Assembly: GCA_021740045.1 (NCBI GenBank)
Contig: JAIPAP010000005.1
Span: 1 to 56,865 of the forward strand
Source: Bacteroidales bacterium
GTDB taxonomy: Bacteria > Bacteroidota > Bacteroidia > Bacteroidales > JAIPAP01
DNA: 56,865 nt
Direction: 5' to 3'
The position numbers were made by a program, and so were the translations under genes. Of this stretch, positions 1,619-36,080 are shown in pieces. The notes beneath the pieces were generated by a model. The model saw only the letters and a list, made by a program, of their open reading frames with translations, had not been told where the DNA came from and did no database searches. The first letter of the stretch is position 1, and the number at the start of each line of letters is the position of its first letter.

Positions 1619-1683
1619 TAAAGGTTTAAAAGTTGAAAATTATTTATTGATTTCATTTTTTAAATTGATCACCATTTCAAGGC

Positions 1684-2280: not shown

Positions 2281-2298
2281 AATCGTATCAATTTTGAA

Positions 2299-3534: not shown

Positions 3535-3552
3535 AGTTAATACATTTAATGG

Positions 3553-4071: not shown

Positions 4072-4083
4072 AACACTATTTTT

Positions 4084-4746: not shown

Positions 4747-4759
4747 AATTCAAAACACA

Positions 4760-6340
4760 TTATTTGTTAGCACTTGCTTTTTTACGGCTGCTAGCCGAAA
4801 CTGCCCGCAGTGTGGCATGTATCACCACCCCGATGAGCGATAAAATGATCAGTATGCTGCCCATAGTATCGAGGGCTGCGTTATAATCGCGGCCGGGCAT
4901 ATAGAAATCCTCCAGCTTAGCCAGTCTGCTATTGCTACGTGTATGGCATTCTTCACATTTTACCGATTGATCGGCCGGAGAAACCATATGACTGAGGGGC
5001 AGGGTCATTTCTGTTGAGATAAAGCCATAATCACCACTATATGGCAAACCAATGTATTCCATTCCTTTTTCAATGGAAAGCGCCCAATTGAAGTCTTTCC
5101 ATAATGCGCCCTGTCCTTTTTCCTCATCCCATAATTTCATCTGTACCAGCCGGTTATACTTTTTATCATAAGGTTGTTTCCCCTTGTGGATCTTCACCGG
5201 CCATATCTTGGCATCTTCATCGCTGTACTTACCTTTTAAGGTATTGATCTGAACGGGAGTTTCATCTATCTCGTCGGATAACAAGTAATGATCGGCAGTG
5301 CCGTTAAACCAGATGTAATCGGGCTTAAGATTTTGCCCCCATTCAAAAGAGCCTTTTATGGAGAGATACTCATGCTGTCCCTCATCGTTATCAATGGAGT
5401 AAGGTTTGCCATCCTCGTCGAGCTTTGTGGCTGTTGACCAGTCCCACCGGGTTTTTGTAGGATTTGCCTTTGCATAACGGGGAATATGGCAGGTTTGACA
5501 AGCAACCTTAATGGTGTGCTCGTTGAGAAGGTTATCTTCATGCGGACGAGCTCCGTGGCAGTTGGTGCAGGTAGCCCTGTTGCGATCCATGGAAGATACA
5601 CCATAATACTTACCTTTCATCTGATGCTTTTCGGTGATGTGGCATTCAACGCAGGCCATGTCGGCGCCATCTTTGGCCATATGCACATCCACGTCTTTTG
5701 TTGTATTTAAGAGAGCTTTATCCAAAGCGCCGTTTTTCACGTTGTTACCCCCGGCGCTGAAAAAGTGGCAAATACCGCAATTTTCCTTTTTCGGGCTGCC
5801 CACGCTTTGGGCAACAAAACCCAAATCGATGCTGGGATAAGGATAACCCGCGGCACCTTTGGCTTTACGGTATGTGCCCGAATTATCATGACACACCAGG
5901 CAGTCGATATTCGACTGATCGTTAAAATCGAAAGATTTATCTTCCCATCCGTAACCAATATGGCAACGTGTACAAGTACCTTCGCTACCGGCAATACCGG
6001 TACAGAAATTATTGATGAGGTTTTTTTTGCCCAGGTAAGTCACTCCTCTTCCTTTAATGTGAGCATCTCTTTCCCAGTTCCAATGAGCATTGCTCATCAC
6101 CTCCTTACCTCTTTCGGTATGACATGATAAGCAAGCTTTGGTAACCTCATGAGCATTGTTAAAATCTTTTTGTAATTCCTCGAATTTGGAGTGGTCAACC
6201 GAAGCATCTTGATACATTGGGTCCTGTTTGCGGGGAACATAGTCGGTTTCATCATCCCCGTTACCTCCCATGCCTGCTATGCCCATAAGGATAAAGGGCG
6301 GCACCAGGAGAATCAGTAATACGGTTATTAGTCTTTTCAT
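4760..6340 (-). CDS. Octaheme c-type cytochrome, tetrathionate-reductase (Otr)-like family, with N-terminal signal/anchor and a C-terminal TM helix
   Basis: 526-aa ORF with exactly eight CxxCH motifs (CLSCH, CTRCH, CLVCH, CGICH, CVECH, CTNCH, CQTCH, CEECH). N-terminal hydrophobic segment. C-terminal helix ILIILSLIGVVIHATL followed by basic residues. The octaheme status is certain. The Otr-family assignment rests on size, motif spacing and context. Confidence 0.85.
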   Translation of the reverse strand: MKRLITVLLILLVPPFILMGIAGMGGNGDDETDYVPRKQDPMYQDASVDHSKFEELQKDFNNAHEVTKACLSCHTERGKEVMSNAHWNWERDAHIKGRGVTYLGKKNLINNFCTGIAGSEGTCTRCHIGYGWEDKSFDFNDQSNIDCLVCHDNSGTYRKAKGAAGYPYPSIDLGFVAQSVGSPKKENCGICHFFSAGGNNVKNGALDKALLNTTKDVDVHMAKDGADMACVECHITEKHQMKGKYYGVSSMDRNRATCTNCHGARPHEDNLLNEHTIKVACQTCHIPRYAKANPTKTRWDWSTATKLDEDGKPYSIDNDEGQHEYLSIKGSFEWGQNLKPDYIWFNGTADHYLLSDEIDETPVQINTLKGKYSDEDAKIWPVKIHKGKQPYDKKYNRLVQMKLWDEEKGQGALWKDFNWALSIEKGMEYIGLPYSGDYGFISTEMTLPLSHMVSPADQSVKCEECHTRSNSRLAKLEDFYMPGRDYNAALDTMGSILIILSLIGVVIHATLRAVSASSRKKASANK

Positions 6341-16325: not shown

Positions 16326-17132
16326 TTATTGAACTATGAGTTTTGAAGCATCAATCACCTGTCCGTCGGCTCTAAGGTTAATAAAATAAGAGCCTTTTGC
16401 CAGCTCATCAATTTGAATATTTTCCAAATGCCGGCCTGCTCCCATTACACCTTTGTTACGAATGGCGACGCGGTTTCCGATAATATCGAAAATCTCGATC
16501 ATAATATTCTGGCGTGTGCTGATTTCATAATCAATCCGAACGTGTTCCACTGCGGGGTTGGGATAAACCGATTTGATGCGGTTACTGAGTTGAGCCGTTG
16601 TCTCTTCCAGCCCAACCGGATAACAAGGATTCCAGATTCCGCCATTGGCTTCCAGATAGCTATTAATAGTATCATTGGAAGGCGGCCAAATGTACTGTTT
16701 GATAATGGAGTGATCGGGCGAAACCAATACAACCGTGGGATAAGAAGCTATCTGCCATGAATTGATTACCTTGTCACCGCCACCGTCATAGCCGGAAGCT
16801 GCAGGGAACTCAATGCCAAAATCCTCGTTAAACTGGGCTAATTGAGAATTACTGGCACCGAAATTCACACCCAGAAAAAACACATTTTCTTCGTTACATC
16901 CGTAATCAAGGTAAGATTGATTGATTTCGGGAGCATATGTTTGGCATCCACCGCATGTGGTGGTATAGAAATTGATCAATACCATATTCCCCTCGTCGAG
17001 AATTTCAAACAGTTCATGAATGTTGCCTTCAAGGTCTTTCACCGTAAAGTTCTTGGCCGTATCCAAGGGCGTTTGGGCCGATAAGGTGATTGTAAAAAAT
17101 GCGATTAAAATCAGTGTAAAAAGCCTTTTCAT
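16326..17132 (-). CDS. Thioredoxin-fold (TlpA/redoxin-like) protein with a T9SS type-A C-terminal sorting domain
   Basis: 268 aa with a signal peptide. Thioredoxin-like motif NFYTTTCGGCQTYAPE (CGGC). The last ~80 aa (VYPNPAVEHVRIDY...GSYFINLRADGQVIDASKLIVQ) look like a Por/T9SS sorting domain. Confidence 0.75.
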   Translation of the reverse strand: MKRLFTLILIAFFTITLSAQTPLDTAKNFTVKDLEGNIHELFEILDEGNMVLINFYTTTCGGCQTYAPEINQSYLDYGCNEENVFFLGVNFGASNSQLAQFNEDFGIEFPAASGYDGGGDKVINSWQIASYPTVVLVSPDHSIIKQYIWPPSNDTINSYLEANGGIWNPCYPVGLEETTAQLSNRIKSVYPNPAVEHVRIDYEISTRQNIMIEIFDIIGNRVAIRNKGVMGAGRHLENIQIDELAKGSYFINLRADGQVIDASKLIVQ

Positions 17133-19780: not shown

Positions 19781-22700
19781 ATGAAAACAAATCTATTTCT
19801 ATTCAAAGTAACCTCGCTATATCTGGTAATTTATTTGGTATGCGGCTTTTTGGATGCAAACCCACAGGATTCAACTGCTTTAGAACATAATGAAATGAAT
19901 TTTTATGAGCTTCAGGAAGCTTTTTATAATTATTGGGAACCCTATGATGTAAGTAATGGGTATTATTATCAAAATGGCGAACGCCTGAAAGCATTCGGAT
20001 GGAAACAGTTTAAGCGCTGGGAGTGGTTTTGGGAAAGCCGGGTAAATCCCGAGACCGGGGAATTTCCTGAAAAGCTCAGGGATGAATACTTCACAGAGAA
20101 ACAAATAAAAGGTGGGGCAGGACCAAAAGAAGGTGATGATAGCTGGACGAGTTTGGGGCCTTCTTCAACACCCGGCGGATACCACGGGCTGGGACGATTA
20201 AATTGTATAGCTTTCCGGGAAGGTGATGAAAACACATTTTATGTGGGTTCTCCAAGCGGTGGTCTTTGGAAAACCACCGATGGCGGTTCCTCGTGGGGCC
20301 CTCTAACTGATGACAATCCTGTTCTTGGAGTAAGCGATGCGGTTGTTATTCCCGGTGCGACTCCAGCTTCAGATATTGTTTATATAGCTACCGGGGACAG
20401 AGATGTGGGGTTTGCCATGCAGGCAATTGGTAGCGGACAGGTTAATGAAAACAACAGCATTGGGGTGATGGTGTCCAGCGACGGTGGAACAACCTGGGAA
20501 TCTACCGGCTTATCATTTGATGCAGCTGACAAAACACTTACTAACCGGCTCCTGCTCGATCCAAATAATAATAGCATTTTGTATGCAGCCACTTCTCTTG
20601 GAGCCTATAAAACCATTGATGGAGGAACAACGTGGGCACAAATTTCGGAGCATGAATTTATTGATATGGAATTCAAGCCCGATAATAGTAGTGTCATTTT
20701 CGGATCAACAAGGGTGGGCGGAAAAATATACAGAACAACAGATGGGGGAGGTTCATGGACCGAACAATTGGATGTATTTGGAGGCCACCGCACTGAACTT
20801 GCAGTCACACCGGCCAATCCGAGTAGAATTTACGCTGTTGTAACCGATGGGTACTCTTCCAGCGTCGGCCTGGAAGCCGTTTTCAGGTCCGATAATATGG
20901 GAGATAGTTTTACTGATATTTATGAACATCCTACAATTGGAAATACCAATCATAATTTATTACAGCGTGATTGCAATCCGAATGCCCAAACGGGTGGCCA
21001 GGGACATTACGACCTGGCCATAGCAGCAGACCCCAATGATGCCGATATTGTTTATGTAGGTGGCATTAATACCTGGAAGTCAACTGACGGAGGAGATAGC
21101 TTTGCCATTGTTAATCATTGGAGCACAACCTGTGGTGGAACAGTCGAGACTGTACATGCCGACAAACATGCGCTAGCATTCAGAGGCAGTACATCCATAC
21201 TATTCGAATGTAATGACGGGGGCTTATACAAAACTGAAAATGGGGGAACTAACTGGACCCACCTTGGAGATGGGCTGGTAACAAGCCAGATATATAGACT
21301 GGGGTTATCAGCGCTAAGCTCAAATGAGTTGATAAGCGGATTGCAGGACAATGGCACAAAAGCGATGCTCTCAGGAACCTGGACCGATGTATTGGGAGGC
21401 GACGGTATGGAATGCATAATTGATTTCAAAAACAACAATATACAATACGGTTCACTTCAGAATGGAAAACTCTACCGCTCTACCGATCATTGGAGCAATT
21501 CCACACTCATACATTTAGCGGAAGGAGCCTGGGTTACCCCATTTATAATGGATCCGGTTAGCAGCAGCACATTATATGTCGGTTATAATACTGTATTGAA
21601 ATCAGGAAATCAGGGTAGCAGTTGGTCTGTAATTGGCTACATTGACGGAAGCAATGGAATACGCTCTCTTACTATTGCTCCTTCAGATCCAAATTATATT
21701 TATGCAGCCTTTCTTGATGTGATTTACCAAACCACAACCGGGGGAGATTCCTGGACCAATATCACAGCAGGCCTACCTGTTGCCACTTCAAACATAACCT
21801 ATATAACGATCGATGAAGATGATCCTAATACCATTTGGGTCTCGATGGGTGAGTATAATGAGCATGGGGTTTATCAATCAACCGATGGAGGGTCAACATG
21901 GACTAATATATCAACAGGCCTGCCCGAAGTGCCGGTTATGTGTGTAATCCAAAATATGAATAATGATGCGGAAACAGAATTATATGCAGCTACCGATATT
22001 GGGGTTTACCAAAAAGTGGAAGTTGGTGATTGGGTGGATTTCAGTTCGGGCTTACCCAATGTGGTAGTTACCGAGCTGGAAATATATTACGATAATATTG
22101 AACCTGATGACAGCAAATTGCGTGCTGCTACTTATGGAAGAGGATTATGGGAATCACCTCTTCCTCCGGCACAGATATGCAGGCCCCCAACTGATCTGCT
22201 TGCTGATAATATTGGTGTTTATTCAGCACGTTTAAACTGGACCTCTGCCGGAGCCTCCCGCTGGAATATTGAATATGGCCTTGATGGTTATGAATTGGGA
22301 GAAGGAACATTGATTGAAGGAGTGGGGGCAAATCCTTATTCGCTTTCAGGACTTGATGGAAATACAGCCTATGATTTTTACATACAAAGTGATTGCGAAG
22401 ATGCTACAGGCATGAGTGAATGGGCCGGACCGGCTTCTTTTACTACGATAAGGGAAGGGCTTACCTGTGAATTTTCACATCTGATCACAGCACTACCTTT
22501 TTCTCTTTCCGATCATACTACCGAAAACAGTGAAAACGACTACAATATGGGCAATGGTGCTAATACATGCGGTACAGGCTATATGGAGGGCGAAGATTAT
22601 GTATTTGAATTCACTCCCGATAACGATGTTTTTCTTGATGTAACCATCTCCAATAATACCGACCCAACCGGAATTTTTATTCAGGATGGATGTCCGGATG

Positions 22701-25513
22701 ACCCTGAAACATCATGTATTGACGTTAACTATTCAATTGACGGGAATCCCTCGTTAAGTGCAGTCCCTCTGACAGGGAAAAGCACCTATTTTCTTATTGT
22801 CTCCACTGGTGGAGAAGTAGAATTTACAACATTTGATATCCTCCTCGAAGAAGTGATCTGTCCTGATCCATCTTCCATTATTATTGAGGAGGTAACCGGT
22901 ACCACAGCCACCCTGTCATGGACCACCGGAAGCTCAGCGTTATGGAATATTGAATATGGTCCGGGTGGTTTTGCTCATGGTGAAGGCACACTATTGGAAG
23001 GCATTGTTGACAATCCTTATACCATAACCGGATTGGATGCCTCAACTGCCTACGATGTATACGTACAAGATGATTGCGGTGGAGGAGAAACCAGTAACTG
23101 GGCAGGCCCCCAATCTTTCATGACCACCGAACTTTGTCCTTCTCCTTCCATGCCTATGGTAAACAGCACCACTTATACCACTGCAGAGTTAAGCTGGGAT
23201 CAGCCTGCCGGTACTTCGGCCTGGGATATCGAATGGGGAGTATCGGATTTCACATTGGGTGAAGGAACCTTAGTGACAGGGATCACAGAAGTCCCTTATG
23301 AATTAACCGGGCTGTCTCCCGGTACCACTTATAAATATTATGTCAGAAGCAACTGCACAACCAGTGGTAATGGTGTTGGTGAGTGGTACCCCGATCCAAT
23401 GGCAATGCCGGTAACATTTACAACTACCTCACCGCTTGAAGCTCCACTGAGCGAACATTTTGAAAACGGAGGATCGATACCCAGCGACTGGACGCAGGAA
23501 AACATAAGTGCATCTGTCGATTGGACCTTCCAAAATGGGGGACATGACGGCAATCCACCCAACGCTGCCGGTGGATCTTATAATGCATTTCTTTTTGCCG
23601 AAGAAGCCGGCGATCACCAAACCCGCTTGATCACTCCCCTGATCGATGTTACTTCAATGGGCGGAATGGTTTTATCATTCATGCACACACAGGCCGCATG
23701 GACAGGACAGGATGAGTTGAGCGTGTATTACCGTCCTTCTCTTGATGATGAATGGATACTGTTACCTTCGGCCACATGGACCGAAACTATTGAAAGCTGG
23801 ACCAAGGAGATGTTCGCGTTACCGGGAGCTTCATCTACCTACCAATTCGCTTTTGAAGGTAATGCCAGTTATGGCCACGGGGTATGCATTGATATGTTTA
23901 AAATCGATATTCCCATGAACATGGAATGGATGGGTGACTGGAGTTGCGATTGGAATTACATGGATAACTGGATGGGAGCCGAATGCCCGGGTGCTCTTGA
24001 TAATGTATATATCGCCAGTTGGGTTGCCAATCAACCTGAAATAAATGCCAATGTAGCCTGTAATAATCTTGAGATCGAGTCATCTGCCCAGGTAACACTA
24101 CTGCCGGAAGGCACATTAACCACTAATGGCACATTAACAATGCATGGGGATGACGGCATCTTAATCCAATCCAATGCCACCGGAACAGGCTCCCTGATTA
24201 CAAACGGAGATATATCCGGTGCAGGAAACCTGCAAGTACAACGCCATATCCCCGCATACACCGAAGATGCCGGCTGGCATTTCCTTTCTTCACCGGTGGA
24301 TGTACAGGCTATTTGCAATGGCTTTGTGGATAACAGTGATCCGCTTAATCCCATTCCCGGCATGAACGACTTCTATAAATGGTATGAACCGACAAATATG
24401 TGGATCAACACCAAAAATGACGGAGGATTTTGGAATGATGATTTTGAAGATAACTTCATTGTAGGTTGCGGTTATTTAGTGGCTTATGAAGGCATAGAAA
24501 CCAAAACCTTCACCGGCTCACCCAATGCATCCAACCTAACTTTGAATGCAGCGTCTACACCTCCATTGACCTATACACCCGGAGAAGGTGACGGCTGGAA
24601 CCTGGTAGGAAACCCATTCCCTGCTGCCATCGATTGGGATGAACTGACCAAAACCAATATTGATGATGCGGTTTACACCTATGACGGGGAAGCCGGGCAA
24701 TATAAATCCTGGAACGGATCGGCCGGAAGCTTTACCGATGGAATTATTCCCCCCATGAACGGCTTTTTTATTAAAGCAAACGGCGACCCCAGCCTGACCA
24801 TTCCCAAGTCAGCGCGCTTGCATTCTTCCACCGGATTTTATAAAAGCGCTAAATCATCAAGGGATGTGCTTAAGCTTACAATAAGCGGCAATGGCTTTTC
24901 CGACGAAACATACATTTGTTTCAGCCATAATGGCTCAAAAGGTTTCGATCATGACGGGGATGCCTATAAGCTCTATGGCGCTGAAGATGCCCCGCAGCTT
25001 TATTCCATTATCCCGGAAGAAATTCTTTCCATAAATGTATTGCCCTATGCGAATGAATGCACCATACCCATTGGGCTTGAAGTAGGGGCTGAAAAGAATT
25101 ATGTGCTTACCTGGAATGATTCTTTTTATGAAACGGTTGAACTCTCTCTTGATGATCTTAGGCAGAATAAAACGATCAACCTCAACCAACGTGATCATTA
25201 TACCTGTTCAGCCTCGCCGGGTGATGAACCCGACCGTTTTCTGCTTCATGTAACCGGAGCAACGGGAATGCCGAACACTTTGCAACACGGGGCCTTTAAG
25301 ATCTATAATCACAAGGATTTGGTCTATATTAAAAACCGTTTACAGGAAAAAGCAAGCATTGAGATATACAACCTTGTAGGTCAACTTATTACCAGCAAGC
25401 AAATTAATGGAGCCGGCACTTACACCATTTCAATGCAGGGCCATAGTGGCTTTTATGTAGTCCGTGCACAATCGTTAAATCATTATCAATCGAAAAAAAT
25501 CATCATTAAATAA
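19781..25513 (+). CDS. Giant secreted T9SS cargo: Asp-box (BNR) beta-propeller region, three FN3-like modules, a MAM/choice-of-anchor-like domain and a T9SS C-terminal sorting domain
   Basis: 1910 aa with a signal peptide. At least 8 Asp-box motifs (TTDGGSSWG, SSDGGTTWE, TIDGGTTWA, TTDGGGSWT, STDGGDSFA, TENGGTNWT, TTGGDSWT, STDGGSTWT). Three ~90-aa repeats contain L(N/S)W...W(N/D)IE(Y/W)G...T(A/T)Y. The C-terminus ...SIEIYNLVGQLI...GFYVVRAQ...KKIIIK is typical of a T9SS sorting domain. Confidence 0.85.
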   Translation: MKTNLFLFKVTSLYLVIYLVCGFLDANPQDSTALEHNEMNFYELQEAFYNYWEPYDVSNGYYYQNGERLKAFGWKQFKRWEWFWESRVNPETGEFPEKLRDEYFTEKQIKGGAGPKEGDDSWTSLGPSSTPGGYHGLGRLNCIAFREGDENTFYVGSPSGGLWKTTDGGSSWGPLTDDNPVLGVSDAVVIPGATPASDIVYIATGDRDVGFAMQAIGSGQVNENNSIGVMVSSDGGTTWESTGLSFDAADKTLTNRLLLDPNNNSILYAATSLGAYKTIDGGTTWAQISEHEFIDMEFKPDNSSVIFGSTRVGGKIYRTTDGGGSWTEQLDVFGGHRTELAVTPANPSRIYAVVTDGYSSSVGLEAVFRSDNMGDSFTDIYEHPTIGNTNHNLLQRDCNPNAQTGGQGHYDLAIAADPNDADIVYVGGINTWKSTDGGDSFAIVNHWSTTCGGTVETVHADKHALAFRGSTSILFECNDGGLYKTENGGTNWTHLGDGLVTSQIYRLGLSALSSNELISGLQDNGTKAMLSGTWTDVLGGDGMECIIDFKNNNIQYGSLQNGKLYRSTDHWSNSTLIHLAEGAWVTPFIMDPVSSSTLYVGYNTVLKSGNQGSSWSVIGYIDGSNGIRSLTIAPSDPNYIYAAFLDVIYQTTTGGDSWTNITAGLPVATSNITYITIDEDDPNTIWVSMGEYNEHGVYQSTDGGSTWTNISTGLPEVPVMCVIQNMNNDAETELYAATDIGVYQKVEVGDWVDFSSGLPNVVVTELEIYYDNIEPDDSKLRAATYGRGLWESPLPPAQICRPPTDLLADNIGVYSARLNWTSAGASRWNIEYGLDGYELGEGTLIEGVGANPYSLSGLDGNTAYDFYIQSDCEDATGMSEWAGPASFTTIREGLTCEFSHLITALPFSLSDHTTENSENDYNMGNGANTCGTGYMEGEDYVFEFTPDNDVFLDVTISNNTDPTGIFIQDGCPDDPETSCIDVNYSIDGNPSLSAVPLTGKSTYFLIVSTGGEVEFTTFDILLEEVICPDPSSIIIEEVTGTTATLSWTTGSSALWNIEYGPGGFAHGEGTLLEGIVDNPYTITGLDASTAYDVYVQDDCGGGETSNWAGPQSFMTTELCPSPSMPMVNSTTYTTAELSWDQPAGTSAWDIEWGVSDFTLGEGTLVTGITEVPYELTGLSPGTTYKYYVRSNCTTSGNGVGEWYPDPMAMPVTFTTTSPLEAPLSEHFENGGSIPSDWTQENISASVDWTFQNGGHDGNPPNAAGGSYNAFLFAEEAGDHQTRLITPLIDVTSMGGMVLSFMHTQAAWTGQDELSVYYRPSLDDEWILLPSATWTETIESWTKEMFALPGASSTYQFAFEGNASYGHGVCIDMFKIDIPMNMEWMGDWSCDWNYMDNWMGAECPGALDNVYIASWVANQPEINANVACNNLEIESSAQVTLLPEGTLTTNGTLTMHGDDGILIQSNATGTGSLITNGDISGAGNLQVQRHIPAYTEDAGWHFLSSPVDVQAICNGFVDNSDPLNPIPGMNDFYKWYEPTNMWINTKNDGGFWNDDFEDNFIVGCGYLVAYEGIETKTFTGSPNASNLTLNAASTPPLTYTPGEGDGWNLVGNPFPAAIDWDELTKTNIDDAVYTYDGEAGQYKSWNGSAGSFTDGIIPPMNGFFIKANGDPSLTIPKSARLHSSTGFYKSAKSSRDVLKLTISGNGFSDETYICFSHNGSKGFDHDGDAYKLYGAEDAPQLYSIIPEEILSINVLPYANECTIPIGLEVGAEKNYVLTWNDSFYETVELSLDDLRQNKTINLNQRDHYTCSASPGDEPDRFLLHVTGATGMPNTLQHGAFKIYNHKDLVYIKNRLQEKASIEIYNLVGQLITSKQINGAGTYTISMQGHSGFYVVRAQSLNHYQSKKIIIK

Positions 25514-27527: not shown

Positions 27528-28295
27528 ATTAAAGCAATTATACGGTTTTTCATCTCGTATTATAAGCGCCCCTTACTGATTATTGTTTCTTATAGCGAAT
27601 TTAAGCAATAATTACATAAAAGTAATATTTTTTTAGGTCAATTTGATGATTGTTTTTGGAGACAATGAAAAAAACATCAACTCATCCTTCAGCTTCTTAA
27701 TTATTAAAAAAATATTTCAACGTGGAAAACTCAGCAGGGCATTAAGCGATAAATTTATTGAAAATGCCGATGTCAATGGATCAGTATAAGTGGCGCTGAT
27801 CGGCATTACAGAATTGCTGGGGGCGTAGTAAACCCTGAAGCACCATCTGAATGAACTGCAAAACGACATCCATCATATCTTAAAAATTACATCGATTTGA
27901 TATTATCTATCTATTGTTGTATCTTTGTAAGTACATTACTATTAAAGTAATGTAAATCAGGGGGTTTTTAAGGGGGATGTTAATACATCAGTAGTTCGAA
28001 CATAATTAATTTCTACTCTTCAGATCAGGTTACATTATTGCCGTTCCTCCTTGCAGTTGGCATAGTTATACAATGCCATACCATTAAATTGGATTCTCGT
28101 GCAGGATAGCATCCAAGGCAGGAAGAGTAAGTTATTCTGAATATAATTCATATTGATGACTGTGGGTTAAATAAAATGGTCCTCTGCTAGATCTAATGAT
28201 CAGCAAAAAGCTTGTGATATATATGTAATAGGTTTTCAATATGTTAACACAATTTTGCTCGTAATTTTTATAGGGATGACGTAATTAAAGTATGT

Positions 28296-29753
28296 ATGGA
28301 AAAAGGTAAGGGAGAAACATTTTCATTGAAAAAATGCCCAACCGGGATTAACGGATTGGACGAAATGACGCAGGGCGGATTACCCCGGGGCAGAACAACC
28401 CTGGTTTATGGAGGGCCGGGATGCGGTAAAACGGTTTTGGCAATGGAATTCTTATACAGGGGAATAATGAATTATCAGGAACCAGGAGTTTTTCTGGCCT
28501 TTGAGGAACCCCAAAAAAGCCTGGTTACTAATTTCGCTTCTATGGGGTTCCACTTATCTGAAGCCATCGATAAAGGAAAGTTGTTAATTGACTTTGTCAA
28601 GATCGATCCTGCCGAAATTACAGAAGCCGGTGATTTCAACCTTGATCCTGTTTTTATCCGCCTCGAGCAGGCCATACAAAAAACCGGGGCAAAACGAGTC
28701 GCCATCGATACCATTGAAACCATCTTTTCAGCTTTAACAAAAGTAGAGAAACTCCGCTCAGAAATAAAACGTCTTTTTCAATGGCTTAGCGAGAAGGGAA
28801 TGACTGCTATTGTAACAGGAGAAGAAGGAAGAAATGAAGCCACAAAATACGGATTGGAAGAATATGTTTCCGACTGTGTAATTGTATTGGATAACCGTAT
28901 TCGCGAACAAGTCTCGAAAAGACGGCTGCGCATCCTTAAATACCGTGGATCGAGCCATATAGCCGATGAATGCCCTTTTCTTATCAGCAGCAACGGTTTT
29001 TCGGTATTACCGGTAACATCCCTTGAGCTCAATCATCCGGCCGGCAATGAACGAATTTCCACCGGTGTGTCCGATCTGGACGATTTAATGAGTGGGTTGG
29101 GTTATTACAGGGGATCCAGCATCCTGGTAAGTGGTACTGCCGGAACCGGAAAAAGCAGTATTGCTGCCCATTTTGTTGAAGCTGCTTGCAAGCGGAACGA
29201 AAGATGTCTTTACCTTTCTTTCGAAGAATCGGTGGATCAAATTGTGCGGAATATGAAATCCATAAAAATTGATCTGAGCCCCTATATTGAAAACGGCTTG
29301 CTTACCATTAAATCGGAACGAACATCTACTTTGGGTCTCGAGGAACATTTACTAAAACTGCACCGCTTAATAGAAGACCAATCACCCAAAGTGGTTATTA
29401 TGGACCCGATAACCAACTTCTTCAGTGTGGGAAATTTCACAGAGGTAAAAAATATGCTGACCCGGATATTGGATTTTCTGAAACAACATGAAATAACCGG
29501 GTTTTTTACCAGCCTCACCGAACCGGATAATAGCCGGGAACAAACAACGGTTGGCATTTCATCCATAATGGACACCTGGATTGTATCACAGGACTATCAG
29601 GACAAGAATGAAAAAAAGCGTATCCTATACCTGCTAAAATCAAGAGGCATGGGTCATTCAAGAGCTATAAAGGAAATGCACATTACCCCGGAAGGTGTAA
29701 AACTCACAAAACCCCATTTCAACCTGGAACGGGATAAATTAGATGACAATTAA
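28296..29753 (+). CDS. kaiC: Circadian-clock-type double-domain ATPase KaiC
   Basis: 485 aa and colinear with cyanobacterial KaiC. CI Walker A GGPGCGKT and catalytic pair FLAFEEP. CII Walker A GTAGTGKS and YLSFEES. The phosphosite region TTVGISSIMDT aligns to TDSHISTITDT of S. elongatus (T426, S431, T432). Confidence 0.9.
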   Translation: MEKGKGETFSLKKCPTGINGLDEMTQGGLPRGRTTLVYGGPGCGKTVLAMEFLYRGIMNYQEPGVFLAFEEPQKSLVTNFASMGFHLSEAIDKGKLLIDFVKIDPAEITEAGDFNLDPVFIRLEQAIQKTGAKRVAIDTIETIFSALTKVEKLRSEIKRLFQWLSEKGMTAIVTGEEGRNEATKYGLEEYVSDCVIVLDNRIREQVSKRRLRILKYRGSSHIADECPFLISSNGFSVLPVTSLELNHPAGNERISTGVSDLDDLMSGLGYYRGSSILVSGTAGTGKSSIAAHFVEAACKRNERCLYLSFEESVDQIVRNMKSIKIDLSPYIENGLLTIKSERTSTLGLEEHLLKLHRLIEDQSPKVVIMDPITNFFSVGNFTEVKNMLTRILDFLKQHEITGFFTSLTEPDNSREQTTVGISSIMDTWIVSQDYQDKNEKKRILYLLKSRGMGHSRAIKEMHITPEGVKLTKPHFNLERDKLDDN

Positions 29754-29771
29754 ACTATTGGAGGAAAAACT

Positions 29772-30068
29772 ATGGAAAATGAGCAACATAAAAGCATTAT
29801 TTTAAAACTATATATTGCAGGAACAACCGAAAAATCGCAGGCAGAGGCCGAAAGGCTTCAAGAGGTTTGCGAGAATCATTTCCCCGGAAAATACAAAATT
29901 GAAGTGATCGATCTGTTGGAAAGGCCTCAACTGGCATCTGATGAACAAATATTTGCTGTACCCACCCTGGTAAGGGATTTACCTTTACCGGTTCGAAAGG
30001 TGATAGGTGATTTTTCCAACGTCGAAAAAGCTTTGGTGGGTTTGGATCTTTTACCCCGGTCGCACTAA
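29772..30068 (+). CDS. kaiB: Circadian clock protein KaiB
   Basis: 98 aa. ILKLYIAGTTEKS...IEVIDLLERPQLASDEQIFAVPTLVRDLPLPVRKVIGDFSNVEKALVGLDLL is nearly colinear with S. elongatus KaiB. It lies 18 bp after kaiC. Confidence 0.9.
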   Translation: MENEQHKSIILKLYIAGTTEKSQAEAERLQEVCENHFPGKYKIEVIDLLERPQLASDEQIFAVPTLVRDLPLPVRKVIGDFSNVEKALVGLDLLPRSH

Positions 30069-30100
30069 AATAAAGAGTTGAACGAATAAACACTGGAAAA

Positions 30101-32485
30101 ATGAATCCACGGGAAAACAAAACGGACCAACGCTACCTTAAAATTATTAATGAGAGTGCTGATGGCATTGTAATAGTTAATGATCAAGGAAAGGCTCTTT
30201 TTGCTAATCCCAGGGCCAGTGCATTATTACAGCGGGAACCGCATGAAATAACCGGTGCTAACTTTGGCTTTCCACTTTTTGAGGAAGAGTCAACAGAGCT
30301 TCAAATACCCAGGAGCGAGGGCACATTAAGTCATGTTGAATTGCGAACAGTAAAAACCACTTGGGAAGAGCAGGATGCTTATATATGCAATTTGAGGGAT
30401 ATTACTGCACACAAAAATACAGAACACAAACTTAGAGAAAGTGAACAAAAATACCGCTCTCTTTATAATTCCATTCGTGATGCCATATTGGTAGCCAATA
30501 CCAACAGGGAAATTATCGATTGTAATGAAGCTTTTACCGAACTTTTTGGATACCGGCTTACCGAAATAAAAGGGAAAAAGACCAGCCTTATATATGCAAA
30601 CGAGGAAGAATACAAAGCCATGGGCGAAGCCATAATAATGCACAAAGGCGACCCAAAATTCCTGTTTAATGTTCATTACAAGAAAAAAAGCGGCGAGGTT
30701 TTCCTTGGAGAAACCAACGTATTTTATAAACAGGATGCTGATGGAAATGTAATTGGTTTTTTAGGACTTTTCAGAGATATTACAGAAAAAGAGAAAGCCG
30801 ATAAAGAGCTTCGCGACAGTTATAAACGCATTCGAACTATTGGTAATAATCTCCCTTCAGGAATTATATACAGAAAACGTCTGAAAAAAGGAGTCAAGCC
30901 AAAATTCACCTATATCTCCGACAAGGTAAAACAATTGCATGGTTGCACTCCGGAAGAAGCAATGAAAGATTCTGACCTTATATACAACAATATTCTTGAA
31001 GATGATTTAAAGCTCTTGAAAAAAGAACGCAACAGGGCAATGGAAGAGCTTACTCCCTACAGTATTGAAATAAGGGTAAAAAGGCCAAATGGTGATATCC
31101 ATTGGCATCAGGTTATTTCCCAACCACATAAAATAGAGGATAACTATATTTTCGATGGAATTGAATTTGATATTAGTACGCGCAAAAAATCAGAAGAGGA
31201 ACTTAAAGCAATTTCAGCAAGACTAGCCCGCCAAAATGAAGATTATGAGGCTATCAACGAAGAATTAAATCAATCCAATGATCAACTTCAGCAATTAAAC
31301 AAAGAACTGGAGCATGCGAAAGAAAAAGCCGAAGAAAGCGATCGCTTAAAGTCGGCGTTTTTAGCCAATATGAGCCATGAGATACGTACACCCATGAACG
31401 CTATTATGGGATTTTCGGGCTTGCTCGACGATCCTGATATATCACCTGAAGACCAGAAAAAGTATGTTGATATTATTCAAAACAAGGGTGAAGTTTTGAT
31501 GCAATTGATCAATGATATTGTCGACACTGCTAAAATTGAAGCGGGTTATCTTACCCTGCGCTATGAAAATATAAATCTGAATGACTTTTTTGATCAAGTT
31601 TACACAACCTCTCAAAACACCATAAAGCAAAAAGGGAAAGCCGATGGCATTGAGATGCGTTACCGAAAGCCGCTTCCGGATGATAAGGTTAACATCAGAA
31701 CCGATCCTGTAAGGGTGCGACAGGTAATTGATAACCTGGTCAATAATGCCATTAAATTCACCAATGATGGATATATTGAAATCGGATATCAAGAGCCTGA
31801 AGAAGATTTGATTACCATGTATGTTAAAGATACCGGTATTGGTATTCCGGAAGATAAACAAGCCTTGGTTTTTGAACGTTTCCGGCAAATAGAGGATGAG
31901 CAAAATCCCGATAATTTTTATGGTGGCACAGGTCTCGGTTTAAATATAGCAAGCAACCTTGTCGGGCTTCTGGGCGGCTCCATTTGCCTGGATTCTGTCG
32001 AAGAAAAGCCAGATCAAACCGGAGGTACTACTTTCTATCTTACTATTCCTTACCTACCTGTAAGTAACGTTAAAAGTGCCAGTGTTAAAGAAAAACTTAG
32101 TGAAATCCCCAATTGGAAAAATAAAACTATTCTTTTAGCTGAGGATGAAGAATCGAACCTCGAATATATTAAAGAGGTTCTTCGCCCTACCAATATTAAT
32201 ATGCTGGTAGCATTAAACGGAAAAGAATGTGTTGAGATTTTCAAAGCTAATCCCGGGATCAATTTGATTCTTATGGATCTTAAAATGCCGGTTATGGATG
32301 GCTATGAAGCCACTCACCAAATACGGCAACTCGATCAAAAAATAGTCATCATTGCCCAAACCGCCTATGCATTGACCGGCGATAAGGCGAAAGCTATTAA
32401 GGCTGGATGTAACGATTACATCGCCAAACCGATCAAAAAGCAACTATTGGTTAATTCAATATATAATCACATTAGCCAGCGATAA
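30101..32485 (+). CDS. Multi-PAS hybrid sensor histidine kinase (PAS x3, coiled coil, HisKA, HATPase_c, receiver)
   Basis: 794 aa. H-box SHEIRTPMNAI. N box NLVNNAIKFT. G boxes DTGIGI and GGTGLGL. C-terminal REC domain (ILLAEDEE...DLKMPVMDGYE...KPI). It lies 32 bp after kaiB, so it is probably the clock output or input kinase. Confidence 0.9.
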   Translation: MNPRENKTDQRYLKIINESADGIVIVNDQGKALFANPRASALLQREPHEITGANFGFPLFEEESTELQIPRSEGTLSHVELRTVKTTWEEQDAYICNLRDITAHKNTEHKLRESEQKYRSLYNSIRDAILVANTNREIIDCNEAFTELFGYRLTEIKGKKTSLIYANEEEYKAMGEAIIMHKGDPKFLFNVHYKKKSGEVFLGETNVFYKQDADGNVIGFLGLFRDITEKEKADKELRDSYKRIRTIGNNLPSGIIYRKRLKKGVKPKFTYISDKVKQLHGCTPEEAMKDSDLIYNNILEDDLKLLKKERNRAMEELTPYSIEIRVKRPNGDIHWHQVISQPHKIEDNYIFDGIEFDISTRKKSEEELKAISARLARQNEDYEAINEELNQSNDQLQQLNKELEHAKEKAEESDRLKSAFLANMSHEIRTPMNAIMGFSGLLDDPDISPEDQKKYVDIIQNKGEVLMQLINDIVDTAKIEAGYLTLRYENINLNDFFDQVYTTSQNTIKQKGKADGIEMRYRKPLPDDKVNIRTDPVRVRQVIDNLVNNAIKFTNDGYIEIGYQEPEEDLITMYVKDTGIGIPEDKQALVFERFRQIEDEQNPDNFYGGTGLGLNIASNLVGLLGGSICLDSVEEKPDQTGGTTFYLTIPYLPVSNVKSASVKEKLSEIPNWKNKTILLAEDEESNLEYIKEVLRPTNINMLVALNGKECVEIFKANPGINLILMDLKMPVMDGYEATHQIRQLDQKIVIIAQTAYALTGDKAKAIKAGCNDYIAKPIKKQLLVNSIYNHISQR

Positions 32486-32535: not shown

Positions 32536-32597
32536 ATCCCCGTCCCGAAAGTATTTGGGATCGGGGCAGGCTGTGAGCGAGAAACGCTCTATTTGGG
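32536..32597. repeat. Two-hairpin intergenic repeat element, copy B (short form)
   Basis: atccccgtcccgaaagtatttgggatcgggg is followed by gtgagcgagaaacgctctatttggg. These are the same two modules as at 14618-14722. Hairpin 1 is preserved with a G-U wobble and hairpin 2 with a shortened stem (gagcg/cgctc). Confidence 0.55.
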
Positions 32598-32617
32598 TGC
32601 AAATCAGCTAACAGCTA

Positions 32618-32647
32618 CAAAAAAAGCCCACTTGCAAGCAAGGGGCT
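32618..32647 (-). terminator. Probable terminator of the ferredoxin gene; the hairpin sits between convergent genes
   Basis: The plus strand reads caaaaaaagcccacttgcaagcaaggggct. On the minus strand this gives agcccct...gggct pairing followed by ttttttt. Confidence 0.45.
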
Positions 32648-32680
32648 TAATGGATTTATACATAATTTAATGGTCCTTAA

Positions 32681-32848
32681 TTATTCCGGGTGAATGGCTT
32701 CAACCGGGCAAACATCTGCACATGCGCCGCAATCGGTGCACAGATCAGGATCAATGGTGTAAGGACTTCCTTCGTTGATAGCTTCAACGGGGCATTCATC
32801 AATGCAAGTACCACATTCTGTGCAATCATCTGTTATTACGTAAGCCAT
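32681..32848 (-). CDS. 2x[4Fe-4S] ferredoxin (55 aa), below the ORF-track size cutoff
   Basis: My translation of the minus strand is MAYVITDDCTECGTCIDECPVEAINEGSPYTIDPDLCTDCGACADVCPVEAIHPE*. It has two canonical CxxCxxCxxxCP clusters. The listed plus-strand ORF 32690..32920 is its antisense shadow. Confidence 0.85.
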   Translation of the reverse strand: MAYVITDDCTECGTCIDECPVEAINEGSPYTIDPDLCTDCGACADVCPVEAIHPE

Positions 32849-33198: not shown

Positions 33199-35055
33199 AT
33201 GAGTGAAAAAAACAAAAATGTTGTTGAAAAGGAAGATGTAGTTGTCCGTTTTGCCGGTGATTCAGGTGACGGCATGCAGTTAACCGGGTCCTTATTTTCC
33301 GATTCAACAGCAGTAGAAGGTTTCGATTTTGCCACATTTCCGGATTATCCGGCCGAGATACGTGCCCCACAGGGTACTATTGCCGGTGTATCGGGTTTCC
33401 AGGTGCATTTTGGGCATAAAGACATCTACACCTCCGGTGATTATGCCGATGTGCTGGTAGCCATGAATCCGGCTTCGCTGCGCTCTAACCTTAAATGGAC
33501 CAAAACAGGAGGAACTATTATCCTCGACCGGGACGCATTCACCGAAAAGGGATTAAAAAAAGCGGGTTATCATTCAAATCCGCTGGAGGATGGAAGCCTG
33601 GATGATTATAAGGTAATAGACCCGCCCATTACCACACTCACGAAAGAAGCTGTAAAAGACCTGAATGTCGATCACAAAATGGCTCAAAAGAGTAAGAACA
33701 TGTTTGCCCTGGGCATGCTGTTCTATCTTTTCCACCGCGATTTCAAATCGACATTCGATTTTTTTGAAGAAAAGTTTAAAAAGAACCCACTTGTAGTGGA
33801 TATGAATAAGCGGGTTCTTAAAGCCGGTTACAGTTATGCCGATAGCGTTGAAGCCATGCGTTCAACCATCAGTGTACCGCCTGCCGATCTTAAAAAAGGC
33901 ACTTACCGTAACATTACCGGTAATGTTGCCACCGCCTGGGGGTTTCTGGCTGCCGCCGAAAAGGCGGGCAGGGAGCTGTTCCTCGGTTCATATCCCATTA
34001 CACCTGCATCGGAAATTTTACAGGAATTATCAAAACATAAACAGTTTAACGCCAGGGTATTCCAGGCCGAAGATGAAATCGCCGGTATCACTTCAACCAT
34101 CGGGGCATCTTACGCCGGAGCGCTTGGCATAACAACCACTTCCGGTCCCGGCTTGTCGCTGAAAAGTGAAGCCATCGGATTGGCGGTTATGACCGAGTTG
34201 CCCATCGTAATTGTGGATGTGCAGCGTGGTGGTCCTTCAACAGGATTGCCCACTAAATCGGAGCAATCGGATTTGCTGCAAGCGCTTTTCGGTCGCAACG
34301 GCGAATGTCCTACTATCGTTATTGCTTCCCAAAGCCCGGTGGATTGTTTTTATGCAGCCTATGAAGCTTCCAAGCTTTCGGTTGAACATATGACACCCAC
34401 CCTGCTTCTTACCGACGGCTCCATTGCTAATGGCTCCGAAGTATTCCGGATTCCGAAGGTGAAGGAAATGGATTCCATTGATGCCCCCATAGCTGAACCC
34501 AATGATGAGGACTTTAAACCCTATAAACGCGATGAGAAAACCCTGAGCCGCCAATGGGCCATCCCCGGAACCGAGGGCTTAAGGCATCGGGTGGGAGGCC
34601 TCGAGAAAGAAAATATCTCCGGAAACGTTTCGCACGATCCTAAAAATCATCAATTGATGATTGAATTGCGTCAGGACAAAGTAGATCGTGTGGCCGATTA
34701 CCTCCCTGAACAAAAAGTTGTGGGGAAGGAAAGCGGCGACATCCTGGTGGTAAGTTGGGGAGGAACTTTCGGAGTAGTGCGTGAGGCTGTTAAGGAAATT
34801 CAGGAAGAAGGAAAGAGCGTTAGCATGGCGCATTTTCGTTATATTAATCCTTTGCCGAAAAATACCGGCGAAATCCTGAGTAAATTCAAAAAGATCGTGG
34901 TTTGTGAGATCAACAAAGGACAATTTATGAATTACCTGAAGATGAATTTTCCCCAATATGACTACGACCTGTATTATAAGATACAAGGTTTACCCTTCCT
35001 GGTATCGGAATTAAAAGATAAGTTTAACGAGGTAATCGAGAAACTTGACCAATGA
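33199..35055 (+). CDS. korA: 2-oxoglutarate/2-oxoacid:ferredoxin oxidoreductase subunit alpha
   Basis: 618 aa. The N-terminal gamma-like domain is fused to the alpha domain (VVRFAGDSGDGMQLTG..., GSYPITPASEILQEL, ITTTSGPGLSLKSEAIG). It overlaps the beta subunit gene by 4 nt. Confidence 0.9.
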   Translation: MSEKNKNVVEKEDVVVRFAGDSGDGMQLTGSLFSDSTAVEGFDFATFPDYPAEIRAPQGTIAGVSGFQVHFGHKDIYTSGDYADVLVAMNPASLRSNLKWTKTGGTIILDRDAFTEKGLKKAGYHSNPLEDGSLDDYKVIDPPITTLTKEAVKDLNVDHKMAQKSKNMFALGMLFYLFHRDFKSTFDFFEEKFKKNPLVVDMNKRVLKAGYSYADSVEAMRSTISVPPADLKKGTYRNITGNVATAWGFLAAAEKAGRELFLGSYPITPASEILQELSKHKQFNARVFQAEDEIAGITSTIGASYAGALGITTTSGPGLSLKSEAIGLAVMTELPIVIVDVQRGGPSTGLPTKSEQSDLLQALFGRNGECPTIVIASQSPVDCFYAAYEASKLSVEHMTPTLLLTDGSIANGSEVFRIPKVKEMDSIDAPIAEPNDEDFKPYKRDEKTLSRQWAIPGTEGLRHRVGGLEKENISGNVSHDPKNHQLMIELRQDKVDRVADYLPEQKVVGKESGDILVVSWGGTFGVVREAVKEIQEEGKSVSMAHFRYINPLPKNTGEILSKFKKIVVCEINKGQFMNYLKMNFPQYDYDLYYKIQGLPFLVSELKDKFNEVIEKLDQ

Positions 35056-36080
35056 AACAAGAAGCATTAGAAAATATTCAACCCCTGAGCAAGGATGATT
35101 TCATTAGTGATCAAATGGTGAAATGGTGCCCCGGGTGCGGCGACCATGCCATCCTGGCTGCTGTCTCAAAGGTTTTTCCAAAACTTGGAAAACGTAAGGA
35201 AGATTTTTGTGTTATATCAGGCATCGGATGTTCTTCACGATTTCCCTATTATGTGAATACCTATGGCATACATGGTATTCATGGACGTGCATTACCCATT
35301 GCCAGTGGGGTAAAAATTGCCAATCCCAACCTGAGCGTTTGGGTAACCACCGGCGATGGCGATGCCATGGCCATAGGTGGGAATCACTTTATCCACACCA
35401 TGCGCCGAAATCTTGATATCAATATTGTACTGTTCAATAACCGTATTTACGGCTTAACCAAAGGACAGTATTCCCCCACAACTCCCATGGGTGACGTAAC
35501 CAAAACCTCTCCACAGGGAACTATCGAAAGGCCCTTTAATCCCGGTGAGCTGGTTATGGGCGCGCAAGGTACCTTTTTTGCCCGCGGAATCGATACCAAC
35601 CCCAAAATGATGACCGAACTTATGCTTGAAGCAGGAAATCATAAGGGGACATCACTGGTTGAAATTCTTCAAAACTGTGTGATCTATAACAATGGGGCCC
35701 ATCGTATGATCACGGCCAAAGACACCAAGGACGACTATCAGCTTCATTTAAAGCAGGGCGAGCCCATGATCTTTGGCAAAGAGGGTAACAAAGGCATCCG
35801 TCTTAACGGCATCGACCTTGAGGTGGTAACCATTGGAGAAAACGGCATTACGGAAAATGATCTGCTGGTACATAATGCCCACAATGCCAATCCCAGCCTT
35901 CACCTGATGCTGGCCCGGATGATGCCCCCGGAATTCCCCGTTGCATTGGGCGTGATCAGGGCAGTGAAGGAAGGAGTATATGAATCCCTTTTGGAAAAAC
36001 AGATTGAACAAGCACAGGATCAATCCGGTATGAAATCCGTCGACGACCTGCTGTTTAGCGGAAATACATGGGATATTTAA
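35052..36080 (+). CDS. korB: 2-oxoglutarate/2-oxoacid:ferredoxin oxidoreductase subunit beta (TPP-binding)
   Basis: 342 aa. Motifs WCPGCGDHAIL and the TPP motif TGDGDAMAIGGNHFIHTMRRNLDINIVLFNNRIYGLTKGQ. Confidence 0.9.
   Translation: MKQEALENIQPLSKDDFISDQMVKWCPGCGDHAILAAVSKVFPKLGKRKEDFCVISGIGCSSRFPYYVNTYGIHGIHGRALPIASGVKIANPNLSVWVTTGDGDAMAIGGNHFIHTMRRNLDINIVLFNNRIYGLTKGQYSPTTPMGDVTKTSPQGTIERPFNPGELVMGAQGTFFARGIDTNPKMMTELMLEAGNHKGTSLVEILQNCVIYNNGAHRMITAKDTKDDYQLHLKQGEPMIFGKEGNKGIRLNGIDLEVVTIGENGITENDLLVHNAHNANPSLHLMLARMMPPEFPVALGVIRAVKEGVYESLLEKQIEQAQDQSGMKSVDDLLFSGNTWDI

Follow-up and report, generated by a model that had tools for sequence, protein, structure and literature searches.

The contig JAIPAP010000005.1 (hereafter the window, by which we mean the full stretch of 56,865 nt and not the Kai locus alone) carries three adjacent plus-strand genes, kaiC (28296–29753, 485 amino acids, aa), kaiB (29772–30068, 98 aa) and a hybrid histidine kinase gene (30101–32485, 794 aa), and we lean towards the interpretation that these encode a KaiA-independent phospho-switch of the KaiC2/KaiB2 type which is co-expressed with its cognate PAS hybrid histidine kinase. 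The content and order of the genes, the conservation of the functional residues, the linkage of the three genes throughout a small clade, and the absence from KaiC of both the KaiA-binding tail and the coiled coil are observed directly. The operon type is otherwise ordinary, widespread and already catalogued, and the twist is the natural absence of the coil together with matching substitutions. This absence is the point missed by the preliminary description of the locus, which was made from the sequence alone, and it makes the KaiC of Rhodobacter sphaeroides (KaiC-RS), not the cyanobacterial protein, the relevant comparator.

KaiC and its C-terminus

The kaiC product has tandem CI and CII domains, as seen from the match to PF06745 in two stretches (1e-106, Pfam), and it scores 646 bits against NCBIfam NF006799 ('circadian clock protein KaiC', cutoff 408), so a chance match is not an issue. 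Against the cyanobacterial equivalog TIGR02655 the score is 338 bits, under the cutoff of 546. The best match in the PDB is the R. sphaeroides KaiC (8DB3/8DBA; 513 bits, 6e-153, 51% identity over 465 residues), compared with approximately 300 bits for cyanobacterial KaiC and 35% identity to the Synechococcus elongatus protein, the reference sequence of which was checked against PDB 1U9I and agrees with it at each of the 519 residues.

Alignment to S. elongatus KaiC places both Walker A motifs, both catalytic glutamate pairs and the Ser-Ser pair at the positions that had been claimed for them. The CI Walker A motif GGPGCGKT (aa 39–46, 28410–28433) has K45/T46 at S. elongatus K52/T53, and the CI glutamate pair E70-E71 (28503–28508), within FLAFEEP (aa 66–72), corresponds to E77/E78. 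In the CII domain, K286/S287 of the Walker A motif GTAGTGKS (aa 280–287, 29133–29156) fall at K294/T295, and the pair E310-E311 (29223–29228), within YLSFEES (aa 306–312), at E318/E319. The phosphorylation segment TTVGISS (aa 417–423, 29544–29564) aligns its T417, S422 and S423 to T426, S431 and T432 of S. elongatus, and S422/S423 also align with the phospho-sites S413/S414 of KaiC-RS. The arginines R217, R442 and R450 are equivalent to S. elongatus R226, R451 and R459, and the B-loop region, which binds KaiB, is gap-free relative to S. elongatus KaiC. The Ser-Ser phospho-pair is a signature of KaiC2 (PMC5520375), and a group of Bacteroidetes with only KaiB2/KaiC2-like proteins was noted by Schmelling et al. 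2017 (PMC5520375). We assign the module to the KaiC2/KaiB2 type, with KaiC in the KaiC2 or KaiC-RS-like group, and this placement rests on the Ser-Ser pair, the adjacent kaiB, a C-terminus without A-loop or tail, and the match to KaiC-RS, not on an alignment to Synechocystis KaiC1/2/3. All of the catalytic and phospho-acceptor residues are intact, and enzymatic activity is predicted.

The protein closes with the short tail P473-H-F-N-L-E-R-D-K-L-D-D-N485 (29712–29750, plus strand), which ends inside the equivalent of the A-loop. Residues N476-L-E-R479 correspond to N485-F-E-R488 of S. elongatus, the hinge preceding the A-loop, and since the window protein stops 6 residues later, it has only a minor part of the A-loop and none of the KaiA-binding tail (A-loop boundaries after Kim et al. 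2008). The end of the protein falls at about residue 494 of S. elongatus, leaving it approximately 25 residues short at the C-terminus and 34 shorter overall, so the earlier estimate of about 30 aa was a fair one.

Relative to its own family, KaiC lacks considerably more. Long-form KaiC proteins run approximately 90 residues past the CII domain in the alignment, a stretch equivalent to the coiled-coil extension of KaiC-RS, which reaches about 50 aa beyond S. elongatus KaiC and joins two hexamers (PMC10076222), and this extension is absent from the window KaiC. The short form is common to a clade: the 11 closest KaiC homologue clusters (59–63% identity by MAFFT, 60–65% by BLASTP) are 475–489 aa long, as are all 12 short-clade members when the window KaiC is included, compared with 555–617 aa in the bulk of the family (53–58% identity). 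In a rough neighbour-joining tree with S. elongatus KaiC as the root, the short Bacteroidota clade forms one group that is sister to all of the sampled long forms, a topology compatible with loss of the coil as well as with a coil that was never present. According to a 2026 preprint, the ancestor of the non-cyanobacterial branch is inferred to have been dodecameric and long-tailed, which would favour loss. A second short group (Chloroflexota-labelled loci and P0024-type proteins) nests within the long forms in the same tree and is unrelated to the Bacteroidota clade. Short KaiC proteins of the 486–487 aa class also occur outside the Bacteroidota clade at L007 (7001–10830), together with two KaiB genes and a 543-aa hybrid kinase, and at L174 (2419–5898), together with one KaiB, a HisKA_3 kinase and a stand-alone receiver; the coil is therefore absent in more than one group.

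By its sequence, the window KaiC is the natural counterpart of the coil-less KaiC-RS construct truncated at E490. That construct keeps nucleotide exchange (19.1 vs. 18.0 per h) and autophosphorylates at a similar rate without KaiA (5.5 vs. 7.4 per h); the coil itself is required in R. sphaeroides if dephosphorylation is to be fast and the complex is to withstand the binding of KaiB (PMC10076222).

KaiB and the hybrid histidine kinase

The single-copy KaiB matches PF07689 at 1e-21 (76.9 bits, cutoff 27). Its best match in the PDB is the KaiB of R. sphaeroides (KaiB-RS, 8FWJ_M, 3e-25), with cyanobacterial KaiB at approximately 1e-24 and Legionella Lpp1115 at 5e-11. Residues 6–94 align gap-free to cyanobacterial KaiB at 49% identity, in agreement with the near-colinearity described previously, and the hinge-region residues G90 and D92 are conserved.

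An AlphaFold2 model of KaiB (pLDDT, the predicted local distance difference test score, of 64), built from 34 close homologues drawn from the database, superposes on the ground-state crystals with template modelling (TM) scores of 0.71–0.74 over 85–95 columns, and on fold-switched, KaiC-bound KaiB with TM scores of 0.42–0.48 over 51–67 columns, in the N-terminal half only. The model hints that this KaiB may be metamorphic, in which case it would have to switch fold to bind KaiC. If the modelled ground state is real, it would provide a slow fold-switch delay, and as the core residues are all present one could imagine a self-sustained, temperature-compensated oscillator that works without KaiA. 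We consider such an oscillator very improbable: free-running in vitro is not known for any KaiA-less system, KaiB and KaiC of R. sphaeroides need an external switch in ATP:ADP (PMC10076222), and the window KaiC is without an A-loop or other identifiable on/off element.

The third gene encodes a PAS-PAS-PAS hybrid sensor histidine kinase, in which each of the three N-terminal segments exceeds the Pfam cutoff of a PAS family when scanned singly. These are the N-terminal PAS (aa 11–102, 30131–30406), which is the conserved head of the clade's kinases, PAS2 (aa 116–231, 30446–30793) and PAS3 (PAS_3, aa 270–347, 30908–31141). They are followed by HisKA/DHp (aa 417–482, 31349–31546), where residue mapping locates the phospho-acceptor H426 in SHEIRTP, by HATPase_c (aa 535–651, 31703–32053; 1.5e-23), and by a receiver (aa 677–787, 32129–32461; Response_reg, 2.7e-23) that carries E681/D682, D726, T754 and K776 and is canonical, not a pseudo-receiver; all of these lie on the plus strand. 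The Pfam scans found no KaiB-like PF07689 domain in the kinase, its N-terminus being PAS, and so agree with the architecture proposed earlier (three PAS domains, HisKA/HATPase and a receiver, without the KaiB-like domain of SasA). They also found no Hpt domain in the kinase, and with a canonical receiver and no Hpt, further relay partners would therefore be encoded elsewhere. Among the open reading frames (ORFs) of at least 50 aa in the window, none encodes a second receiver or kinase core, and the statement that a partner response regulator is not in the window holds over these ORFs.

The N-terminal PAS, the DHp/CA core and the receiver of the window kinase are 42–50% identical to those of its clade. 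The PAS2-PAS3 region is 13–16% identical, compared with 54–62% among the other clade members, so the window lineage has swapped its middle two sensor domains for others. A profile made from the N-terminal PAS scores 156 and 83 bits on contig-end-cut kinases and 145 bits on the complete kinase of L173, all loci outside the set from which the profile was built, and at most 17 bits on the kinases of other KaiC2 loci. We also considered this PAS, the position and sequence of which are conserved throughout the clade, as a docking domain specific to KaiBC; the notion was weakened because the widespread PAS subfamily to which it belongs also occurs in unrelated proteins with multiple PAS domains, where its position varies widely. 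A search with kinase residues 1–400 returned partial PAS matches only and did not recover the clade orthologues.

The sensor region raises the question of direction, as the kinase could instead be the input, its PAS domains sensing redox, oxygen, light or a metabolite and setting the state of KaiBC, with KaiC acting elsewhere. Three PAS sensors, the middle two of them exchanged in the window lineage, fit an adaptable sensing end, and the histidine kinase of the R. sphaeroides kaiBC operon has been proposed as a redox input (PMC5520375). This arrangement nevertheless seems distinctly unlikely to us, since there is no known mechanism by which a histidine kinase would phosphorylate KaiC or KaiB (the latter being without a receiver domain), and since the KaiC of cyanobacteria and of Pseudomonas exerts its effect on kinases by binding them.

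Operon structure, conservation and genomic surroundings

The spacings of 18 and 32 bp between the three genes were given exactly in the preliminary description, the kaiC-kaiB spacer being ACTATTGGAGGAAAAACT. No stable hairpin forms in either gap (z about 0), and both are free of a Bacteroidota −7 motif, the next plus-strand TAnnTTTG lying at 30259, inside the kinase gene. Scanning for sigma-70 promoters and terminators yielded a below-chance number of sites, none of them between the genes of the triad. Judging from this layout, co-transcription of kaiC, kaiB and the kinase gene is likely; a search of RNA runs gave none containing the locus. The KaiA family was not found among the scanned window ORFs, as had been stated before, the rest of the genome being outside the scan. 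Within the kaiC-kaiB spacer (29754–29771) a Shine-Dalgarno-like GGAGG stands 8 nt upstream of the kaiB start, which is unusual for a Bacteroidota-like genome, as Bacteroidota ribosomes are reported not to use Shine-Dalgarno sequences (PMC9976891).

The same order of kaiC, a single kaiB and a PAS hybrid kinase gene recurs in seven of the seven short-clade loci (the window, L001/L002, L003/L004, L005/L006, L171, L172 and L173), with spacings from −4 (an overlap) to 42 bp. The kinases, orthologous to that of the window, are 745–794 aa long, and in two of the seven loci, where the gene is cut by a contig end, they were recognised via the N-terminal PAS profile. The flanking genes differ among these loci wherever flanks are present in the sequence, and it argues for function that the triad shows purifying conservation in all seven despite such differences in its neighbours. 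Two Bacteroidales metagenome-assembled genomes (MAGs) have, just upstream of kaiC (L003, 6017–6623; L004, 6185–6623), stand-alone pieces of a HATPase_c domain (132 or 76 aa) and of a receiver (55 aa) which look like the remains of a degraded histidine kinase.

These data also bear on the notion that the triad is a decaying or recently transferred relic without function, for which one could cite a KaiC that is C-terminally shorter than most relatives and the GGAGG before kaiB in a phylum said not to use such sequences (PMC9976891). We regard a relic as scarcely credible, since KaiC retains the invariant catalytic residues, 12 protein clusters share the short form (59–63% identity) and seven loci share the triad. 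A recent pseudogenising transfer, which the preliminary description had named as an outcome that would overturn its proposal, is not what was found: there are no frameshifts or stops, and the GC content of the triad equals that of the window, on which ground recent horizontal transfer was rejected.

To place the locus within its family we drew on 80 KaiC2-type loci from one-genome-per-species assemblies of many phyla, among the matches listed. The genome and metagenome scans used patterns (LEEYVSDC and similar) that are shared with the long forms, and no relative of more than 57% identity was among the matches listed. In the sampled loci KaiC typically has 560–620 aa, and one or two kaiB genes come after it. 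A gene directly after kaiB was available in 64 loci (including the window and three of the short clade), and among the matches listed its product contains PAS in 55, HATPase_c in 42 and a receiver in 23, and is a sigma-54 activator in 5. This is in keeping with De Luca et al., who reported that non-cyanobacterial kaiC-kaiB clusters nearly always come with a histidine kinase or else with a GGDEF/EAL protein (PMC3164672). The kaiC-kaiB-PAS kinase architecture is thus ordinary and standard for the family across phyla, and its novelty is less than was implied at first. The remark that such systems are little studied in Bacteroidota stands insofar as no experimental study was found, but the family had already been catalogued in the phylum in 2017 (PMC5520375). 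Pedobacter (L089), a cultured member of the Bacteroidota, has the long form (its KaiC is 574 aa long, there are two KaiB, and the PAS kinase has 408 aa), and a Cyclobacteriaceae MAG (L046) likewise has a long-form KaiC.

The motif LRAIRxGEVDAxVV (positions 15–51), followed by PAS, heads the sensor encoded after kaiB in 34 of the 64 loci, across many phyla (the set L007–L087, L089 and L174), the post-kaiB products of Pedobacter and L174 being close variants by eye. It may represent a kinase head associated with KaiBC, and it is absent from the kinases of the short Bacteroidota clade.

Turning to the source, the triad region is contiguous in one lake-water metagenome assembly at approximately 62x, and the identical sequence is present in a second run at approximately 5x. 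The window is Bacteroidota-like, because it encodes a type IX secretion sorting domain (16326–17132) and because the nearest KaiC and KaiB homologues carry Bacteroidales or Bacteroidota MAG protein names. The host looks like a non-phototrophic, ferredoxin-using, cytochrome-rich heterotroph.

This apparent physiology leads to a further explanation, in which the module is a general regulator of stress resistance without timing, as in Legionella KaiBC or the KaiC-like proteins of Pseudomonas, such that KaiC phosphorylation would report stress or stationary phase and the kinase would relay it. We think this unlikely but by no means negligible. Stress resistance has been linked to KaiC homologues outside the cyanobacteria (PMC5520375; 10.1101/2022.01.26.477890), the host looks to be of the heterotrophic kind just described, and a universal stress protein gene lies just upstream of kaiC in the relative L001. 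Against this, the sequences are far closer to the R. sphaeroides hourglass than to Legionella (compare the KaiB values of 3e-25 and 5e-11), and one clade member (L002) comes from a record named ElkS_mat, which we take for a sample of a microbial mat. As both explanations would involve the same molecular mechanism, this one differs from the phospho-switch that we prefer in physiology only.

Several other features were recorded in the window. A candidate Bacteroidota-type promoter, TTTG-N20-TATCTTTG, lies approximately 370 bp upstream of kaiC (27896–27927, plus strand) and is a lead only; it is the sole full match to TTTG-N17-23-TAnnTTTG in the window, with 3.2 expected by chance, and is not significant alone. 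Small ORFs and inverted repeats were examined in the 768-bp spacer upstream of kaiC, with nothing of note. A strong plus-strand hairpin approximately 50 bp past the kinase stop (32538–32566; −23.3 kcal/mol, z −2.6) is a possible operon end, has no T-run and was not called by the terminator scan. It falls within a stretch of about 60 bp (32536–32599); copies of 90–95% identity are present in the same lake metagenome on four or more further contigs, so the stretch looks like a small dispersed intergenic repeat. A search of the window against Rfam gave no matches.

Farther along the minus strand, a 55-aa ferredoxin gene with 2x[4Fe-4S] (32681–32848; Fer4, 2.6e-18), which is under the usual ORF length cutoff, has its own minus-strand intrinsic terminator (hairpin at 32624–32648, then a T-run) and adjoins the alpha and beta genes of a 2-oxoacid:ferredoxin oxidoreductase (33199–36080). 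At 521–6340, also on the minus strand, genes for three rhodanese-domain proteins, two sulphur-transport (Sulf_transp) proteins, one cytochrome b561 and one multihaem cytochrome c are clustered, which suggests respiration or oxidation of sulphur compounds in the host. A 1910-aa protein with Sortilin/BNR-like and fibronectin type III repeats is encoded at 19781–25513 (plus strand), and its C-terminus resembles a type IX sorting signal by eye, with no Por_Secre_tail match at the scan threshold of 1e-6.

Proposed mechanism and comparison with known systems

Each kinetic and binding step of the phospho-switch proposed here is carried over from work on R. sphaeroides, S. elongatus and Pseudomonas, and should be read as such. 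KaiC would be a single double-ring hexamer and not a coiled-coil dodecamer, and without a buried A-loop it would autophosphorylate S423 and S422 constitutively at high ATP in the absence of KaiA. KaiB, probably after its fold switch, would bind the ADP-bound (post-hydrolysis) CI ring, as KaiB-RS binds the ADP-bound CI state (PMC10076222), and its binding would drive KaiC towards dephosphorylation as ATP:ADP falls, by analogy with R. sphaeroides, where the ATP:ADP ratio sets the phospho-state of KaiC-RS (PMC10076222). A direct contact between the proteins, perhaps via the N-terminal PAS as in P. putida, would probably couple the state of KaiC or KaiBC to the downstream kinase, and the kinase would relay through its receiver to an Hpt protein or a regulator encoded elsewhere. 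The module would then behave as an environmentally driven energy or redox sensor, as an hourglass only if the habitat cycles, and not as a free-running clock. The functional timer or energy sensor with kinase output that had been proposed earlier is a reasonable though generic reading; it is upheld as regards the intact, conserved, tightly spaced array and the non-SasA kinase, while timekeeping and the direction of output are conjectural.

A number of points weigh against this mechanism, several of which concern the coil. The E490-truncated KaiC-RS almost loses autodephosphorylation in ADP, and binding of KaiB-RS breaks its hexamer into monomers (PMC10076222), so a natural coil-less KaiC may behave unlike the R. 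sphaeroides model. Because the window KaiC is without the family's C-terminal coiled coil, the published hourglass mechanism is not transferable as it stands. The allosteric network linked to the coil in KaiC-RS comprises S413, S414, W419, Y436, L438, V449 and R450 (PMC10076222). Among the positions tabulated from the alignment to KaiC-RS, S422, S423 and W428 keep the network residue, and the R450 position is occupied by K459, a lysine shared by 11 of the 12 short forms where all 112 of the 112 long forms have arginine. The other substitutions specific to the short clade (12 short vs. 112 long forms) are M461, a change from F to M two residues past K459, together with N438 and K440. KaiB, for its part, scores under both NCBIfam equivalog cutoffs (98.6 vs. 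110 and 88 vs. 145), and its model is of low confidence (pLDDT 64), weakest at residues 50–70. On the side of the kinase, an exhaustive search gave 2108 representatives of the N-terminal PAS type at E<=1e-10, which makes it a widespread one, and its conservation may reflect a shared ligand instead of docking to KaiC.

There is also a bolder and quite speculative suggestion, to which we give little weight at present, namely that the short Bacteroidota clade constitutes a third regulatory type of Kai system under the control of neither KaiA nor a coiled coil. Dephosphorylation and ring stability would have been re-solved within CII (K459, M461, N438, K440) or handed to the co-evolving kinase via its N-terminal PAS or receiver. 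If this were true, bacteria that are non-phototrophic and possibly anaerobic would have a KaiBC-kinase timer of a minimal, hexameric kind.

What is understood of how KaiA-less Kai systems work rests entirely on one protein, KaiC-RS, the coiled coil of which has been presented as a primordial regulator that was later replaced by KaiA. A natural, conserved, coil-less lineage close to KaiC-RS is a ready test of the generality of that model: does a coil-less KaiC dephosphorylate, does its assembly withstand KaiB, and is it still sensitive to ATP:ADP? With this locus, the organisms in which a Kai module may follow the daily course of energy or redox state also include a Bacteroidota-like freshwater host that is not phototrophic.

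The KaiABC system of S. elongatus, with its SasA/CikA-RpaA output, shares with the window a homologous KaiC (35%) and KaiB (49%), the positions of the catalytic residues and phospho-sites, and a histidine kinase as the likely readout. It differs in that the scanned window ORFs contain no KaiA, the window KaiC has neither an A-loop nor a KaiA-binding tail, and the phospho-pair is Ser-Ser instead of Ser-Thr. Its output kinases differ as well. Unlike SasA, the window kinase has no KaiB-like N-terminal domain. CikA has a GAF sensor and a C-terminal pseudo-receiver without the phospho-acceptor Asp, whereas the window kinase has PAS domains, no GAF, and a canonical receiver.

The KaiBC system of Legionella pneumophila (Lpp1114/1115; PDB 4KUN) resembles the window as a KaiA-less kaiBC operon in a non-phototroph, but it is much more distant (window KaiB matches Lpp1115 at 5e-11, and cyanobacterial and R. 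sphaeroides KaiB at about 1e-24). In the Pseudomonas modules a KaiC homologue is in an operon with a (hybrid) kinase, and in P. putida the N-terminal PAS of the kinase is sufficient for binding the KaiC homologue (Terrettaz et al., 10.1101/2022.01.26.477890). The window kinase also starts with a conserved PAS; Pseudomonas differs in having no KaiB, in KaiC groups that are more distant, and in a reported role in stress resistance (10.1101/2022.01.26.477890). The long-form KaiC2 operons of many phyla, such as those of Pedobacter and Cyclobacteriaceae, are of the same family and gene order as the window, but their KaiC proteins of 560–620 aa carry the extension, they often have two KaiB, and their kinases are often headed by LRAIRxGEVDAxVV.

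The closest solved relative of the window module is the KaiBC hourglass of R. sphaeroides (8DBA, 8DB3, 8FWJ; Pitsawong et al. 2023, PMC10076222). The two have in common the Ser-Ser pair, the lack of KaiA, a kaiB beside kaiC and a kinase in the operon. Unlike KaiC-RS, the window KaiC ends approximately 90 residues earlier, has no coiled coil and presumably forms no dodecamer, and has Lys at the R450 site.

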